This document shows positions 13,956 to 51,509 of a DNA stretch of 64,000 bases, piece by piece; position 1 is the first letter of the stretch; each line of letters starts with the position of its first letter. Both the position numbers and the translations under genes were made by a program. The notes under the pieces were generated by a model, which had not been told where the DNA came from, searched no databases, and saw only the letters and a program-made list of their open reading frames with translations. Source of the stretch: Candidatus Magasanikiibacteriota bacterium (GTDB lineage: Bacteria; Patescibacteriota; Patescibacteriia; Magasanikbacterales; GWA2-37-8); assembly GCA_041666745.1 (NCBI GenBank), contig JBAYGI010000006.1, positions 3,474 to 67,473 of the forward strand. The letters run 5' to 3'.

Positions 13956-14327
13956 ATGAAAAACAAAAAACAAATCATTCGCAGTCAAGTCTTACCCGGG
14001 CAAAGTCTAGGTCGCCAAACTGGCTTCCGCACTGCCAATTTAAACCCAATTTTGGCTAAAAATTTAACCAAGGGGTTGTATACCTGTACTGTTGGGTGGC
14101 AAAACAAAACATATTCCGGTCTGTTGTTTTACGGCCACAACTCGCTAAGCCAAGAAGATTGCCTGGAGGTTCATATTTTGAATTTTTCTCAAGATCTTTA
14201 TGGGCAAGAAATAGAGGTAACCACAAAACAATTCCTACGTCCTGAAATGAAATTCCAAAATCTAGAAGAGTTAAAAAAACAACTCGAACGGGATTTAGAT
14301 CAGAATAAGCTGGATTTACAAACCTAG
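13956..14327 (+). CDS. monofunctional riboflavin kinase
   Basis: GRQTGFRTANL ... EVHILNFSQDLYGQEIEV motif pattern of the RibF C-terminal domain. Confidence 0.65.
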   Translation: MKNKKQIIRSQVLPGQSLGRQTGFRTANLNPILAKNLTKGLYTCTVGWQNKTYSGLLFYGHNSLSQEDCLEVHILNFSQDLYGQEIEVTTKQFLRPEMKFQNLEELKKQLERDLDQNKLDLQT

Positions 14328-16709: not shown

Positions 16710-16779
16710 TTTTCTGATACAGTATATTCAGGTAACAAGAAACTCGGGACAAATCCGCCGAAAGGGGAAAGCCGTAAGG

Positions 16780-17349
16780 CTACCGAGTCATCTGACCGTC
16801 CACAAGCTGGACGGTTATTTTTTTCTCAAATAATTTAGTTAATTTAATAGTTTGCTCTGTGGAATTATCTGCGTGAGAACGAAATAATCCTGCGATTGCG
16901 TCCGCTAATCTCAAGCCCGCCGACGCTTCGTCCCTTAACAATCTAATTTTCTTTACAGAAATATTTTTATCACGCAAAACCTTTTTTAGTTTTTGTTCAT
17001 ATCGTTTTGACTTTTTACCATCTATAATTATTTTTTTAATATTGTGTTCTATTATTAAATGCTGAAAAATATTTTCAAAAGCAATATTATAATTTATTGG
17101 ATTATTTACAATGGCTAGTTTAAAAGAAAAATCCAAATTACTCACTACAGTAAGAAAACTTGCTCGTTTTTTCCATCCATTTGTTGAACCATAATCCGAC
17201 CAATGAAACGGTTTTATGCATAATAATTTTTCTACTTCAACAACCGCTTCTTCCATTTCTTTGATACTTTTTGCTTGTAAATAAACAAAAGAAATAGTTG
17301 AATGCCCTACTTTTTTATGAATACCTGATTCGTCTATAAAAATTATCAT
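16780..17349 (-). CDS. DUF3800 family protein
   Basis: N-terminal MIIFIDESG signature. Confidence 0.55.
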   Translation of the reverse strand: MIIFIDESGIHKKVGHSTISFVYLQAKSIKEMEEAVVEVEKLLCIKPFHWSDYGSTNGWKKRASFLTVVSNLDFSFKLAIVNNPINYNIAFENIFQHLIIEHNIKKIIIDGKKSKRYEQKLKKVLRDKNISVKKIRLLRDEASAGLRLADAIAGLFRSHADNSTEQTIKLTKLFEKKITVQLVDGQMTR

Positions 17350-22176: not shown

Positions 22177-22340
22177 ACCAATATTTTACTATTCTTTCCC
22201 TTTTTTAGCAAACCCGCCTTCGCTAAAGCTACGGCGGGTAAAACAAAAAAATCACCTGGCGGTGAAATAGTAGGGCGTCGGGCAGGGGTGTCATGTCCCC
22301 CTGCCCGACGGAAGTCCCGACAGCTCGCTCGATCACGGAG

Positions 22341-38580: not shown

Positions 38581-38752
38581 ACCTTTTAATTTAATGTATT
38601 ATGCTGAATATATTACCACATTATTAGCTTTTAGTCAATAATCCACACAATCCACAACTTATCCACATACTTTGCACAGTTTTGTTGTTTACAACATTTG
38701 TGTTGATACATATCTGTGCTAAAATAACATAAAAGATTTAAAAAATCAACTT
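38581..38752. other. oriC, left part (DnaA boxes)
   Basis: TTATCCACA at 38661 plus aatccacac and aatccacaa variants between rpmH and dnaA. Confidence 0.6.
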
Positions 38753-40147
38753 ATGACCAACAATGAAATATGGCAGGCGGTTCTATCCGAATTAGAGCTG
38801 GTTATTTCCAAAGCAAACTTTAACACCTGGTTTAAAAACACTGGGATCGTTTCTTTTCAAGACGGACACGTTATTTTGTGCGTTCCAAACACCTTTAATC
38901 AGGCCTGGATTGAGAAAAAACACCACCACCAAATCATCCAGTCATTGGAAAGAATTACCGCCCTTCCTATCCGAAAGTTGGAATACAAAATTGAAAATAT
39001 CAAAAATATAGTAGAAAAAATCATCAACACATCCTCTACTCCTCAAGTTAGCGCGGAATCAGAAAAACCGCCGTCTTACGCTCAACAAATTAACCACGCT
39101 CCGGTGCCGGCTCATGGATTCAACATCAATCCAAAATATAATTTTGACAGTTTCGTGGTTGGCAAGGGGTCGGAGTTGGCTTTTACTGCCGCCAAGGCGG
39201 TCGCTGATCGCCCAGGAGAGGCCTACAACCCACTATTCATCTATGGTGGCGTCGGTCTAGGAAAAACCCATCTTTTACAAGCAGTTGGCAATGAGTTGCT
39301 TAAAAAAAATCCACAAACCAACATCTTATACGTTAGCGCTGAAAAATTTACCAATGATTTCATTACCTCTTTGCGCAGTGGTGGAGCAAGAGACTTCCAA
39401 AACCGCTACCGCACCATCGACGCCTTGTTGATCGATGATATCCAGTTTATTGCCGGTAAAGATGCCAGCCAAGAATCATTTTTTCATACTTTCAACGAAC
39501 TCCACCAAGCCAACAAACAGGTAATCCTCACCTCTGATCGCCCACCCAAAGCCATTCCCGCCCTTGAAGATCGTCTAAAATCCCGTTTTGAGTGGGGTAT
39601 GATTGTGGATGTTTCCGCTCCTGATTTTGAAACCAGAGTAGCAATTTTGGGTAAAAAATGCCAAGAAAAGAATTTCATTTTGGACGACAAAACACTCAAT
39701 ACCGTCGCCACTATTGTTCAAAGCAACATCCGCGAGCTCGAGGGAGCGTTAAATAAAATCATTGCTTTCCACCAACTAAAAAATATGGCTCCGACCGCCG
39801 AATCGGTAAAATCAATCCTTTCAAGTTTTGATTCGGCCTCGGCGAGGCGATCCGTCACTTCCCAACAAACCATCGAAACGGTTTGTACGTTTTTTAATGT
39901 TTCCATTGAAAATGTTTGTGGAAAAAGCCGAGAAAAGAAACTGTCTTATCCTCGTCAGATAATTATGTATATTTTACGAAATGACCTAAAAATGTCTTTC
40001 CCTTCCATTGGTGATGAACTGGGTGGACGCGACCATACTACCGCCATGCATGCCAACGAAAAAATCACCAAAGAAATTGACAATGATTTAAAACTAAAAC
40101 AAGAGTTGGAATTAATAAGACAGCGTTTGTATATTAATAATATATAA
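38753..40147 (+). CDS. dnaA: chromosomal replication initiator DnaA
   Basis: Walker A GGVGLGKTHLLQA, sensor motifs, and a C-terminal DNA-binding domain. Confidence 0.95.
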   Translation: MTNNEIWQAVLSELELVISKANFNTWFKNTGIVSFQDGHVILCVPNTFNQAWIEKKHHHQIIQSLERITALPIRKLEYKIENIKNIVEKIINTSSTPQVSAESEKPPSYAQQINHAPVPAHGFNINPKYNFDSFVVGKGSELAFTAAKAVADRPGEAYNPLFIYGGVGLGKTHLLQAVGNELLKKNPQTNILYVSAEKFTNDFITSLRSGGARDFQNRYRTIDALLIDDIQFIAGKDASQESFFHTFNELHQANKQVILTSDRPPKAIPALEDRLKSRFEWGMIVDVSAPDFETRVAILGKKCQEKNFILDDKTLNTVATIVQSNIRELEGALNKIIAFHQLKNMAPTAESVKSILSSFDSASARRSVTSQQTIETVCTFFNVSIENVCGKSREKKLSYPRQIIMYILRNDLKMSFPSIGDELGGRDHTTAMHANEKITKEIDNDLKLKQELELIRQRLYINNI

Positions 40148-40421
40148 AAAATAGTTTTGTTTCTTCGCTTAGTGGTGTGCAAAAGATGTTAACAAGTTGT
40201 GAATAATAAGCTAACAAAAACACCACTTATCAACAGTAAAAAATAAAATTAAAAAAAACACTTTTATCCCCACAGTTTTCCACCGAACTATTAAAAAATT
40301 ATCAACACTGTTTTTGGCTAATTTAAAAACAAAAAACGACTTATTAACTCTTTCCACAGCCTTATTACTATTATTATTTATATATATACTTAATTAAACA
40401 ACATAACCACACCTCTCAATT
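40148..40421. other. oriC, right part (DnaA-box variants plus AT-rich DUE)
   Basis: ttatccccaca, ttatcaaca x2, tgtgaataa, and an AT run ttattactattattatttatatatatac. Confidence 0.55.
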
Positions 40422-48046: not shown

Positions 48047-48433
48047 TTAAATTTCCTGAGTGATGGCCTTTTTGCAGGAAACACAAGCGTTGGAAGTCGG
48101 ACGGGCGGTCAGTCGTTTTTCGTCGATTGGTTTTTTGCAATATTTGCAAATTCCGTATGTGCCATCCTCCAAACGTTTGAGTGATTGGTTGATATCGCGT
48201 AAAGTTTTTTCAAAACTTTCTTCCAATGGAACTTCGGCAGCGTACTCTGCCACTTCGGCGGCATTTTCGTCGTCTTTGTCGCCGTATTCCGGGTAGTTGC
48301 TGTTGTAATCACCGGAAACACGAGTATTTTTTTTGGTAAATTTGCTCAACTCTTTTTCAACAGTCTCTTTTTCCTGTTGGAGTAATATTTTTATTTTAGC
48401 AACAAAATCTTTGTTAAAAGTCGTTTTAGCCAT
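48047..48433 (-). CDS. DksA/TraR-family C4 zinc-finger protein
   Basis: CKYC...CVSC and an acidic coiled-coil. Confidence 0.65.
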   Translation of the reverse strand: MAKTTFNKDFVAKIKILLQQEKETVEKELSKFTKKNTRVSGDYNSNYPEYGDKDDENAAEVAEYAAEVPLEESFEKTLRDINQSLKRLEDGTYGICKYCKKPIDEKRLTARPTSNACVSCKKAITQEI

Positions 48434-49095
48434 ATGGGTTAGTTATTTTCTATGGAAGTAATTATAGCAGATTATTAAACATAGTCAAGCAAAATTTTTT
48501 GAAAAAAAATAAGGGCGTAGTATCCCGATAAACATTGTTTTAAGGATCTCGCCCTTAAGGCGCTGTACATGGTGAGATAAGTCGTCGTATAGACGAAGCT
48601 ATCATCAGCCAAGACAGTAATACCTTCCGACCGCTTGATGGTATTACCTCAGGCATGAGTCTGACACAAAAGGTCAAACAAATGCAGAAAATTTGAGGTT
48701 ACCGGACAAGAAGTACAGATTCGCCACTACTACTTCAATGTATTTGTATAGCAGTTGTAAATCCACTTCTTTGAACTAAGCAGTTCGTAGGGTTATGTCC
48801 ACTGATAAGTGGACGTTTGAGTTGTAGTAAAGAACTACATAATTAGTATAACACGAGAAATGGGTTTTGTCAATAGGTTTGTATAGACTAGTGTATACAA
48901 ACAAGGTTTGTTTTGTAGTTAGCCAAAAAAATAGAGAGGGTGGCGGTATAAAAAAATTGTTATCCACATCTGGGTGTGGATATACACATAGTTATCCACA
49001 GTTTGTATAGAGTAGTGTATACAAAAACAAGATTGAAAGGTGTGGACAAGGGCGGTAAGGTTGACTTTTTGGGTGAAATATGGTAGTGTGCAGGC

Positions 49096-49278
49096 ATGCC
49101 TCTGCTATTACACGCGACAATCGCGTCTTCGGGCGGGGCGAAAGGCAGTATGTCGGTGTCATTGATCATTTTGATCACAGTTGCGCTCGGTTTCGGCTTT
49201 GGCGTGCTCATTTTTGGAGTGGTAAGGGCAGTACACGCCCAAGCGGTGAAAAACACCAAAGGAAGTGAGAGGGAATGA
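49096..49278 (+). CDS. 60-aa single-TM peptide on GC-rich island G
   Basis: TTGACT-17-TAGTGT promoter ends about 6 nt before the ATG (leaderless-like). Overlaps by ATGA a second 30-codon ORF at 49275-49367 that has a GAGAGGG RBS. Large hairpin terminator at 49337-49395. Confidence 0.3.
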   Translation: MPLLLHATIASSGGAKGSMSVSLIILITVALGFGFGVLIFGVVRAVHAQAVKNTKGSERE

Positions 49279-49433
49279 GTTGTCCTGCACACCCCCGTCG
49301 AGCGACTGCTCACGGGGTACACCTACGGCGAGGTAACAAAAAACCACCCGCACTACGCGAGTAGAAAAAGTATTTTCTATTCACGCGACGGGTGGTTTTT
49401 GTTTTGCCCGCCAAAGCCTTGGCGGAGGCGGGT

Positions 49434-51509
49434 TTATTTCTGTTTTCCAGTAATTATATTCTGGGCCACATTGTTTGGCACATCAGCGTAATGGCCGAAT
49501 TCCATTGAAGAACTGGCACGACCTTGACTCATAGAGCGCAAGGAAGTGACATATCCAAACATACTGGCGAGAGGCACGATTGCTTTTACTACCTTCATTT
49601 GACCACGGTCAAACATTTCTTGAATTTGTCCACGTTTTGAATTCAAATCTCCGATACAATCACCCATAAATGGTTCCGGGGTTACCACTTCTATTTTCAT
49701 TATTGGTTCCATGATTACTGGGTTGGCTTTTTTGCAAGCGGCTTGAAAGGCCATAGATCCCGCCATCTTGAAAGCCATTTCGGAAGAGTCGACTTCGTGG
49801 TATGAGCCATCAAAGACAGTTACTTTGATATCCACTACCGGATAACCGGCTTGAATACCGCGGGTCAAAGATTCTTTGACACCTTTTTCAATAGCTGGGA
49901 TAAATTCACGAGGAATCACACCGCCCTTAACATCGTCCACAAATTCAAAGCCTTTGCCAGCTTCTTGAGGCTCAACTTTGAGATAACAATGACCATATTG
50001 ACCACGGCCACCGGATTGTTTGATATACTTACCTTCAGCCTCAGCAGAAGTGCGAATAGTTTCCTTATAGGCAACTTGTGGAGCACCCACATTGGCTTCC
50101 ACTTTGAATTCGCGACGCATACGATCCACGATGATATCCAGATGTAGCTCTCCCATACCTTCGATGATGGTCTGTAAAGTTTCTTCATCAGTATGTACAC
50201 GGAAAGTAGGATCTTCTTCAGTGAGTTTTTGTAGAGCCATGCCGATTCTTTCTTGGTCAGCCTTAGTTTTTGGTTCAATGGCCACGGAAATAACCGGTTC
50301 CGGGAAGATGATTTTTTCTAAAACGATTGGTTTTTTTTCATCACAAAGAGTGTCTCCGGTAGTAATATCTTTTAAGCCAATTGCCGCGGCGATTTCACCT
50401 GAAAATACTTCAGTTAAATCTTCGCGATGGTTTGCATGCATACGAACGATACGTCCAAGACGGCTACGTTCACCACTGGTAGAGTTAAACAAATAACTGC
50501 CAGCAGAAACTTTACCGGAATATACACGGAAGAAAACCAATTTTCCGACGAATGGGTCGGTGGCAATTTTAAAAGCTAGCGCAGAAAAAGGTTCATCATC
50601 GGAAGGGTTGCGAATTTCTTCAGCTTCAGTTTCCGGATTAATTCCTTTGACTGGAGGTAAATCGGTTGGAGCCGGTAAATAACGGATTACCGCATCAAGC
50701 ATCATTTGTACGCCGATATTGGCTAGAGCTGAGCCACAAATTACCGGATACATTTCATTTTTTAAAGTGAGAATGCGAATGCCGGTGTGAATTTCATCAA
50801 TAGTAAGTGCTTCAGCGTTCAAAAACTTTCCCATTAGTTCATCGTTGGCTTCAGCGGCCTTTTCTACCATTTTGGCCCGGTATTCTTTTACTTTTTCTAC
50901 CATATCGGCTGGAATTGGAATTTCCACGATGTTTTCACCGTGTGCGCCTTCAAAATGATAGGCTTTTTCTTCTATCAAATCAATCAGCCCCTCAAAAGTA
51001 CTATCTGCACCGATTGGAAGTTGGATAGCAGTCGCTTTTCTAGACAAACGTTCTTGGATAGAGTCTAAACTCATGTAGAAATCTGCGCCAAGTTTGTCCA
51101 TTTTGTTTATAAATGGTACGCGTGGCACATTGTATTTGTCGGCTTGGTGCCAAACAGTTTCGGACTGTGGTTCTACACCCTGAGAGCCATCGAACACAGC
51201 TACAGCGCCATCAAGCACACGCAAAGAACGCTCTACTTCTACAGTAAAGTCCACGTGTCCAGGAGTATCAATAATATTGATGCGGTGGTCTTTCCAAAAA
51301 CAGGTAGTCGCGGCAGAAGTAATAGTGATACCGCGTTCTTTTTCCTGTTCCATCCAATCCATTTCGGCAGCACCTTCGTGCACCTCGCCGATTTTGTGTT
51401 TTTTACCGGTATAAAAAAGCACACGTTCTGTTGTTGTGGTTTTGCCGGCATCAATATGAGCGGCAATACCGATATTACGTGTTTTGTCTAGTGAATATTC
51501 ACGAGGCAT
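49434..51509 (-). CDS. fusA: elongation factor G
   Basis: GTPase G1-G5 motifs ([17 protein letters not shown]). Confidence 0.95.

Follow-up and report, generated by a model that had tools for sequence, protein, structure and literature searches.

A structured RNA gene and an upstream module of DnaA boxes and palindromes next to a dksA-like gene of Candidatus Magasanikbacteria

The gap between a dksA-like gene and fusA, both on the minus strand, occupies positions 48434–49433 of a 64,000-nucleotide stretch (hereafter the window) of contig JBAYGI010000006.1 from a Candidatus Magasanikiibacteriota bacterium. Sequence comparison shows this gap to be a composite of a structured RNA gene, a conserved module upstream of it and a GC-rich segment private to this genome, and we think it somewhat probable that DnaA and a regulator recognising the palindromes of the module control the promoter of the RNA. 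The same window also carries rnpA-rpmH-dnaA-dnaN. Every feature that an original prediction, made from the letters alone, had listed for the gap is present in the sequence. For comparison we fetched 80 loci around homologues of the DksA-like protein, 812 kb in total, and compared them by blastn. The closest relatives of the protein all come from metagenome-assembled genomes (MAGs) of Candidatus Magasanikbacteria, which belong to the Patescibacteria or Candidate Phyla Radiation (CPR).

The minus strand of 48501–48842 is an independent transcription unit encoding a structured RNA of about 340 nt, the dksA-upstream RNA (family A), which is recognised by its fold, its covariation and its own promoter and terminator. 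The sigma-70 promoter, TTGACA-17-TGnTATACT at 48845–48873 on the minus strand, scores 11/12 in a promoter scan and has an extended −10 element; across 12 orthologous sequences the −35 element is invariant and the −10 element nearly so. The 3′ terminator domain (48501–48557, minus strand) is a long bipartite stem with covarying pairs (AAGGGCGAGAUCC...GGGAUACUACGCCCUU) and an A/U-rich loop, followed by U8. A second promoter, TTGACT-16-TGnTATAAT at 48461–48488 on the minus strand (also 11/12 with an extended −10), lies downstream of the RNA terminator, serves the dksA/ylyA-like gene and is kept in 10 of the 12 close orthologous sequences. The original prediction had offered 48500–48700 as a noncoding RNA (ncRNA) candidate; covariation confirms that a structured RNA is there, on the opposite strand and over the longer interval just given. 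Both hairpins cited for that candidate exist in the sequence. The first, AAGGGCG...CGCCCTT (48510–48557), is the terminator stem of the minus-strand RNA, with T8 next on that strand, while the gtaatacc/ggtattac hairpin is absent from both the minimum-free-energy fold and the consensus fold. The accompanying claim that 48500–48700 has no open reading frame (ORF) does not hold literally, as short ORFs of 28–45 aa occur within 48475–48780, but no positionally conserved ORF was found in the RNA region among 11 orthologous sequences, where the alignment gaps are mostly of 1–2 nt.

Both strands of 48495–48840, like both strands of 49085–49433, fold better than shuffled sequences (z-scores −4.6 to −7.0), with the minus-strand RNA at −6.98. 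In the eleven closest genomes the noncoding stretch running from 49025 to 48438 is 72–82% identical to the window by blastn, while the DksA-like protein is 73–84% identical, and the noncoding DNA is therefore as conserved as the protein that flanks it. Compensatory changes are visible in the alignment, for example GTAGT/ACTAC to GTTGT/ACAAC and GTCCAC/GTGGAC to GTTCAC/GTGAAC. From a structure-blind MAFFT alignment of the 12 sequences RNAalifold predicted 82 pairs, with double substitutions in 25 of them, and a covariance model, R1, was built from this alignment. In the alignment fitted to R1, 91% of cells are paired, compared with 37–48% when the partners are slid, and double changes occur in 75 of the 82 pairs; the observed values were reached by 0 of 500 shuffles. 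R1 matches a single copy in the window (48501–48842, minus strand) and a single copy in each of 28 loci, in all cases on the dksA strand and directly upstream of dksA. With iterative nhmmer searching, members of family A were found in 31 of the 80 loci as well as in 20 independent loci from metagenomes.

A search of Rfam 15 at gathering and at permissive thresholds (E ≤ 10 for the window and E ≤ 5 for nine more orthologous loci) gave no match to the RNA, either in the window or among 21 related loci, and ARAGORN found no tmRNA. The Rfam and covariation check proposed with the original prediction thus returned no catalogued family together with strong covariation, and the candidate passed on the covariation. 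The family is new, being uncatalogued in Rfam 15. Its place in Magasanikbacteria is always immediately before the string of dksA/ylyA-like, lspA and comM genes, with the RNA and these genes on one strand. From 5′ to 3′ the RNA consists of two hairpins, a multi-branched core, a 3′ helix and the long bipartite terminator. CUGCUU/AAGCGG closes the core, inside which are a long hairpin and an arm, GGUA.CCUC/GAGG..UACC, capped by a conserved CCUUUUGUG loop. In being sizeable, multi-helical and supported by covariation, with its own promoter and terminator, it resembles the RNAs already in Rfam (6S, SRP, RNase P, tmRNA, T-box, riboswitches, raiA, OLE and HEARO). Unlike 6S it is branched rather than a rod, and unlike RNase P, tmRNA, SRP and T-box RNAs it has none of their signature sequences. 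The two marks of an independent bacterial small RNA or ncRNA gene, a promoter with a terminator and compensatory substitutions, are both present. The RNA could act in trans or could affect how far transcription reads through into the dksA-like gene. When targets were predicted by folding it in duplex with 54 translation-initiation regions, the duplexes were long and gapped and therefore uninformative.

Immediately upstream of the RNA promoter, 48877–49025 holds a module in which two palindromes of the form TTTGTATA-N8-TATACAAA bracket a group of DnaA boxes, and the alignments mark the whole of this palindrome-box-palindrome arrangement as conserved DNA. The promoter-proximal palindrome, GTTTGTATAGACTAGTGTATACAAAC (48877–48902), stands 3 nt from the −35 element of the RNA promoter and recurs in about 45 of the 80 related loci; the distal palindrome is GTTTGTATAGAGTAGTGTATACAAA (49001–49025). 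No such palindromes are expected, as judged from 100 shuffles. Both members of the duplicated pair had been noticed in the original prediction, which placed the second about 7 nt away from its actual position.

Between them, on the plus strand, lie three boxes. Box 1 (48992–49000), a perfect TTATCCACA, abuts the distal palindrome, and TGTGGATAA is found at this place in nearly all loci that bear the module. Box 2 (48980–48988, position +12) is the weak ATATACACA and is conserved. Box 3 (48960–48968, position +32) is again a perfect TTATCCACA, with TGTG[GCT]A[TC]AAC at the orthologous position in relatives. The longer word GTTATCCACA is perfect at 48959–48968 and 48991–49000. Two minus-strand boxes with one mismatch each, ATATCCACA at 48975–48983, which overlaps box 2 and occurs in this genome only, and TTGTCCACA at 49041–49049, which is not conserved, bring the cluster to four boxes in 90 bp. 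The Poisson probability of such clustering is about 5e-7 per 90-bp interval and about 3e-4 when corrected for position, so that at least two consensus TTATNCACA boxes are clustered beyond chance. The window has 42 boxes with at most one mismatch against about 20 expected, and DnaA-box-like words are therefore generally over-represented in this origin-proximal stretch.

Read toward the RNA, the order of the module is palindrome, TGTGGATAA, n3, TGTGnAnAA, n11, TGTGnAnAAC, about 55 bases that include a TTTGGCTAA motif, palindrome and TTGACA. This order is common to all close relatives, and the same layout is seen in about 45 of the 80 loci. The three boxes are head-to-tail and phased 0/12/32, and start-to-start spacings of 12, 20 and 31–32 bp recur over the loci. 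Across the 80 loci, 86 of the 106 TGTGNATAA boxes fall between −900 and −500 from the dksA start, a region that contains at least one box in 56 of the 75 evaluable loci and at least two in 26. Box orientation is identical in every locus but one (L035), and loci of Uhrbacteria, Falkowbacteria and Parcubacteria without this palindrome still have boxes in the same place and orientation. The comparison of box conservation in relatives thus came out in favour of the boxes. Outside the closest genomes the neighbour on the upstream side is no longer fusA, yet on the downstream side the order RNA-dksA-lspA-comM is kept, and the module therefore belongs with the RNA/dksA unit.

Some further features of the module were observed. 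In L035 (960–1070), alone among the loci, the segment of DnaA boxes enclosed by the palindromes is inverted, and the asymmetric central bases of the palindrome (CACTAGTC or GACTAGTG) flip independently among close relatives (L001–L026), which suggests flipping at inverted repeats, mediated by hairpins or by recombination. The TTTGGCTAA motif inside the module (48919–48927, minus strand) is kept in close relatives. This 9-mer has 10 copies in the window against 1.5 expected, one of them in the origin spacer (40313) and the others outside the module at 14051, 18582, 18646, 38237, 45499, 45614, 52491 and 62971, and it may be bound by some other protein or serve as a promoter element.

The two perfect consensus boxes had been described as lying outside oriC, and this proved correct. 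The spacer between dnaA (38753–40147) and dnaN, both identified by Pfam, contains the unwinding region of oriC (40198–40389, plus strand), in which several DnaA boxes are followed by TTTCCACA (40351–40358), a GC cluster (gcc), DnaA-trios and an AT-rich stretch. Under the trio definition 3′-[G/A]A[T/A]-5′ (PMC7561715) there are six trios, TTA TTA CTA TTA TTA TTT, at 40362–40379. The cumulative GC skew has its minimum at about 40 kb, and 43–49 kb already behaves like the right replichore. Together these features place the chromosomal origin at about 40.2–40.4 kb; with a complete origin and the skew minimum there, the boxes at 49 kb are ectopic, about 8.6 kb away, and the module is located outside the unwinding origin.

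Three tandem boxes, TAATCCACA, CAATCCACA and TTATCCACA, were also seen at 38639–38667 in the spacer between rpmH and dnaA, an arrangement consistent with autoregulation of dnaA or with a bipartite origin of which these boxes form the upstream arm. Perfect TTATCCACA boxes also occur singly at four other places, 786, 16534, 25098 and 38199. Between 42610 and 63750 almost all genes, including rpsL-rpsG-fusA, are on the minus strand, with a GC skew near zero and not clearly positive; lying to the right of oriC, these genes are therefore head-on to the fork leaving the origin at about 40 kb. Highly expressed genes are seldom arranged in this way, and the cause could be a recent inversion or a mis-join in the MAG.

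The candidate operator of the module is a 24-bp palindrome, TTTGTATACACTAGTCTATACAAA, with only the two copies described above in the 64-kb window. An exact-pattern scan of metagenome contigs returned 80 further loci, and the RNA/dksA module accounts for about a quarter of these (21). In the remainder there are mostly two to five copies, at intervals of 70–125 bp. In 24 of the 80 metagenome loci the palindromes lie directly upstream of a gene for an HTH_17 protein of about 110 aa, in 17 loci they adjoin a gene for a sigma factor of the extracytoplasmic function (ECF) type that is divergent from the HTH_17 gene, and in 6 they lie upstream of rmuC. In locus L089 a third copy overlaps the −10 element and the start of the HTH_17 gene. 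Dyad symmetry, copies in promoter regions and copies at the regulator’s own gene are thus all found, and by these marks the palindrome is a genome-wide operator-type motif, distributed as expected for a DNA-binding protein that regulates its own gene together with a regulon. By genomic association the best candidate binder of the palindrome is the small HTH_17 protein, because the promoter of its own gene carries two to four palindromes, and HTH_17, ECF sigma factor and rmuC would form a candidate autoregulated regulon of Magasanikbacteria. DnaA boxes are enriched 25–40 times within 100 bp of palindromes in the module, at rmuC and at other loci, with no such enrichment at the HTH/ECF locus; sites that combine a palindrome with a DnaA box therefore recur at several members of the putative regulon.

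This arrangement is like that of autoregulated small helix-turn-helix (HTH) regulators of the HTH_17 or MerR/Xis-like type, in which two to five operator copies 70–125 bp apart overlap the regulator’s own promoter. It differs from a typical HTH regulon in that the member studied here combines operators with DnaA boxes, and in that protein and DNA are paired by association. The palindrome was rejected as an SOS (LexA) box, since its neighbours are HTH_17, ECF sigma factor, rmuC and carboxypeptidase genes and not lexA or recA; parS, dif and the NrdR box were set aside by comparing sequence and copy pattern with their consensus, with no formal test made. The divergent pair of HTH_17 (about 110 aa) and ECF sigma factor (about 185 aa) genes is itself conserved, at L089:2543–3864, L114:6139–7566, L116:3195–4483, L106:6343–7776 and L091:6635–8042, with two to four TTTGTATA-N8-TATACAAA copies between the genes, abutting the HTH gene. 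At L150:3380–4200 five palindromes lie around tRNA genes and upstream of rmuC, four of them in tandem units of about 78 bp with mutually similar spacers. GCTAA/TTAGC half-sites, sometimes arranged as GCTAAT..ATTAGC palindromes, accompany the 24-bp palindrome in other loci.

We propose that DnaA, bound at the three head-to-tail boxes, would provide a read-out of replication-initiation status, and that DnaA and a dimeric regulator recognising the palindromes, for which the small HTH_17 protein is the candidate, would jointly set transcription from the RNA promoter. The module would also soak up some DnaA, since it is about 8.6 kb from oriC. We infer control of the RNA promoter by DnaA following the precedent of Bacillus subtilis, in which DnaA-box clusters (DBCs) outside oriC regulate neighbouring genes and the timing of initiation (Okumura et al. 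2012, PMC3245932). Like the DBCs, the module is a small cluster of consensus TTATCCACA boxes that is intergenic, near but outside oriC, and beside a promoter. Unlike them, it has a fixed 0/12/32 head-to-tail geometry across Patescibacteria lineages, is bracketed by two operator-type palindromes, and has a gene for a structured RNA, not for a protein, downstream of it.

Several observations weigh against the proposal that DnaA and the palindrome regulator control the RNA promoter. The proximal palindrome lies about 57–62 nt or about 103–153 nt before the RNA start and the distance from the boxes to the −35 element is not fixed, which argues against a rigid contact between an activator and RNA polymerase. 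Several lineages keep the boxes while the palindrome is absent or swapped for another: in six Parcubacteria-like loci (L062, L066, L070, L073, L074 and L077) the boxes, at about −800 to −540 from dksA, are bracketed by a different palindrome, (A)AGTC[CT]AC-N6-8-GT[GA]GACT(T). The HTH_17 protein is not encoded in this window. Finally, the role of the conserved box cluster could lie in replication control and not in transcription. As a separate observation, the palindrome of the Parcubacteria-like loci resembles the second 5′ hairpin of the RNA (48797–48814, GTCCAC-TTATCA-GTGGAC) and contains TGTCCAC, a core like that of a DnaA box.

The main alternative is that the module is chiefly a replication-control site, at which DnaA is titrated or its nucleotide state changed, and that its linkage to the RNA reflects a shared position near the origin. 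We regard this as unlikely, although it deserves real weight. The cluster is 8.6 kb from oriC, and a stretch of 9.6 kb in metagenome locus L117 contains both the module and dnaA-dnaN; the conserved 0/12/32 and 0/20 geometry suits head-to-tail DnaA oligomers; the variable distance from boxes to promoter somewhat favours such a role; deletion of a B. subtilis DBC leads to early initiation (PMC3245932); and composite sites of palindrome and box recur elsewhere, for example at rmuC. Against this, two to four boxes would give a small titration capacity, and the position and orientation of the module relative to the RNA/dksA unit are strictly kept though the upstream neighbour changes, as would be the case for a cis-regulatory element. 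The module is comparable with DARS1, DARS2 and datA of Escherichia coli, which serve to modulate DnaA, in being a non-origin DnaA-binding locus with at least three boxes and sites for accessory proteins, which in E. coli are IHF and Fis. It is unlike them in that its accessory sites are 24-bp palindromes and not IHF or Fis sites. The DARS core of three boxes requires boxes I and II to be oppositely oriented (PMC6868365), whereas the conserved boxes of the module are co-oriented and its single opposed box (48975–48983) occurs in this genome alone; as the opposed pair is not conserved, the module does not fit a DARS-like role.

The RNA could alternatively be a cis-acting leader of the dksA-like operon, similar to a riboswitch or attenuator, with the terminator as an expression platform for read-through. 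In every locus where both ends are visible the RNA is adjacent to and co-oriented with dksA, and the loop and internal-loop sequences of the 3′ hairpin are conserved more than termination needs. We nevertheless hold this improbable. The conserved sigma-70 promoter between the terminator and dksA weakens the reading, as an internal promoter is not what is expected of a riboswitch or attenuation leader; the terminator has a U8 tract; no antiterminator pairing was identified, in a search that was not exhaustive; and there was no match to a riboswitch, T-box or leader family.

The remaining part of the gap, 49026–49433, is a GC-rich segment present in this genome only. Its GC content is 0.47–0.535 over 49000–49400, compared with about 0.39 for the window, and it has no blastn or tblastn counterpart in any of the 80 relatives; in the closest of these, what separates fusA from the distal palindrome is a short terminator and then about 30 nt. 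The segment contains, on the plus strand, an ORF of 60 aa (49096–49278, annotated as hypothetical protein WCT11_03605) and one of 29 aa (49275–49364), then a large hairpin with T-runs on both strands (49327–49412) and a second small hairpin (49408–49425). The two small ORFs and the high GC content had been reported in the original prediction, and these stand. The large hairpin that it read as the terminator of a micro-operon does exist; it is above all the bidirectional intrinsic terminator of the rpsL-rpsG-fusA operon, strong on the minus strand. Likewise the TTGACT of the proposed promoter is present (49062–49067, plus strand), with a −10 element (TAGTGT) too weak to pass the promoter scan. 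A search of 5.8 billion proteins with the 60-aa ORF matched only the ORF itself (WCT11_03605, from a Candidatus Magasanikbacteria MAG); elsewhere it is not on record as a called gene, and no relatives of the segment or the ORF were found in viral and plasmid collections, in the window or in the loci. We conclude that these approximately 400 bp of GC-rich DNA are an insertion private to this genome, with the fusA terminator and an orphan ORF; the insertion may be recent and carry the small hydrophobic ORF. A 120-aa ORF on the minus strand (48960–49322) was rejected as spurious, as it has no Pfam match and its tblastn matches are translated palindrome and box DNA.

The alternative that 49060–49395 is a functional small operon, in which a DnaA-regulated promoter drives a membrane peptide similar to a type I toxin, appears rather doubtful. 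In its favour, the 60-aa product would carry a charged tail besides a plausible transmembrane helix, AAAGG stands ahead of an internal start at 49150, LapA_dom matches weakly and below the cutoff (E 4.7e-4), NCBI annotates the ORF as a hypothetical protein, and the region folds well (z-score −4.6). Neither conservation of the ORF nor a homologue, by which a small membrane protein or type I toxin could be recognised, was found in the relatives and collections searched; the promoter is below the scan threshold, and the adjacent TTGTCCACA box is not conserved. For these reasons the claim of a leaderless GC-rich micro-operon is not supported.

The least likely explanation, which we consider very improbable, is that the cluster is part of the origin, as a second oriC or one arm of a bipartite oriC: its tandem consensus boxes in 12-bp register resemble the box pair of the basal unwinding system, relatives have AT-rich DNA beyond the distal palindrome, and TTTGGCTAA is common to the module and the dnaA-dnaN spacer, but a complete oriC with boxes, GC cluster, trios and AT-rich element lies between dnaA and dnaN, with the bona fide unwinding system at 40351–40389 (GC cluster, trios and AT-rich element at 40359–40389), while the module has no GC cluster or trio array and coincides neither with the skew switch nor with dnaA. 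A reading of the palindrome as DnaA-trios was rejected, since there are no trios in any of the three frames of 49001–49025.

Among the neighbouring genes, the DksA/TraR zinc-finger (dksA/ylyA-like) gene occupies 48047–48433 on the minus strand, followed by lspA and a ComM/Mg-chelatase-like gene, and fusA (49434–51509, minus strand) is the final gene of rpsL-rpsG-fusA. Directly 3′ of the fusA stop codon is a 38-nt hairpin-bearing stretch (49396–49433) with a CCGCCAAAGCCTTGGCGG core, and an inverted copy of it that is 84% identical is found at 22212–22249; the pair may be a repeated terminator or an element similar to repetitive extragenic palindromes. The sole non-tRNA match to Rfam in the window is a DUF3800-II RNA at 16732–16797 on the plus strand (57.6 bits, gathering score 43.2).

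Returning to the RNA of the dksA unit, Uhrbacteria, Falkowbacteria and Parcubacteria loci carry, between the boxes and dksA, a unit of 300–350 nt with its own promoter and terminator. In our own scan, a 3′ hairpin of the same bipartite architecture was found upstream of dksA in 62 loci, and the model R2 gave position-correct matches beyond family A. When R1 was applied to one such locus (L045) only the terminator aligned, and RNAalifold on a MAFFT alignment of 47 of the 3′ hairpins gave no structure, the alignment being mis-registered. The homology of the RNAs of distant lineages (L043–L080) is tentative, because its support is the shared architecture of the 3′ hairpin together with position, and a single Patescibacteria-wide RNA family is plausible and not established, because R1 misses the remainder of the distant RNAs. 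We offer, as a speculation with low confidence, that a unit of phased DnaA boxes, a promoter, an RNA of about 300–350 nt with a bipartite 3′ hairpin and a dksA-like gene would have been present in the ancestor of Magasanikbacteria, Uhrbacteria, Falkowbacteria and Parcubacteria. In such a unit the RNA would couple replication-initiation status, as DnaA-ATP, to the control of RNA polymerase and growth, and the lineage-specific palindromes would be boundary or co-regulator sites around a DnaA sensor.

To our knowledge, bacteria of the CPR are uncultivated, and their regulation of replication and their ncRNA repertoire are almost wholly undescribed. The gap analysed here adds a well-supported new family of structured RNA that is strictly syntenic with a DksA/YlyA-like factor, a protein that binds RNA polymerase, while its eye-catching GC-rich ‘micro-operon’ proves to be a strain-specific orphan. 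The candidate regulon of the 24-bp palindrome, the small HTH_17 protein, the ECF sigma factor and rmuC intersects with DnaA sites. The deeply conserved cluster of DnaA boxes of fixed geometry outside oriC is evidence that in these organisms DnaA either works as a transcription factor or undergoes titration close to the origin. If the wider proposal is true, a Patescibacteria-wide RNA controlled by DnaA would be a new class of regulatory RNA linked to the cell cycle, in bacteria with reduced genomes.

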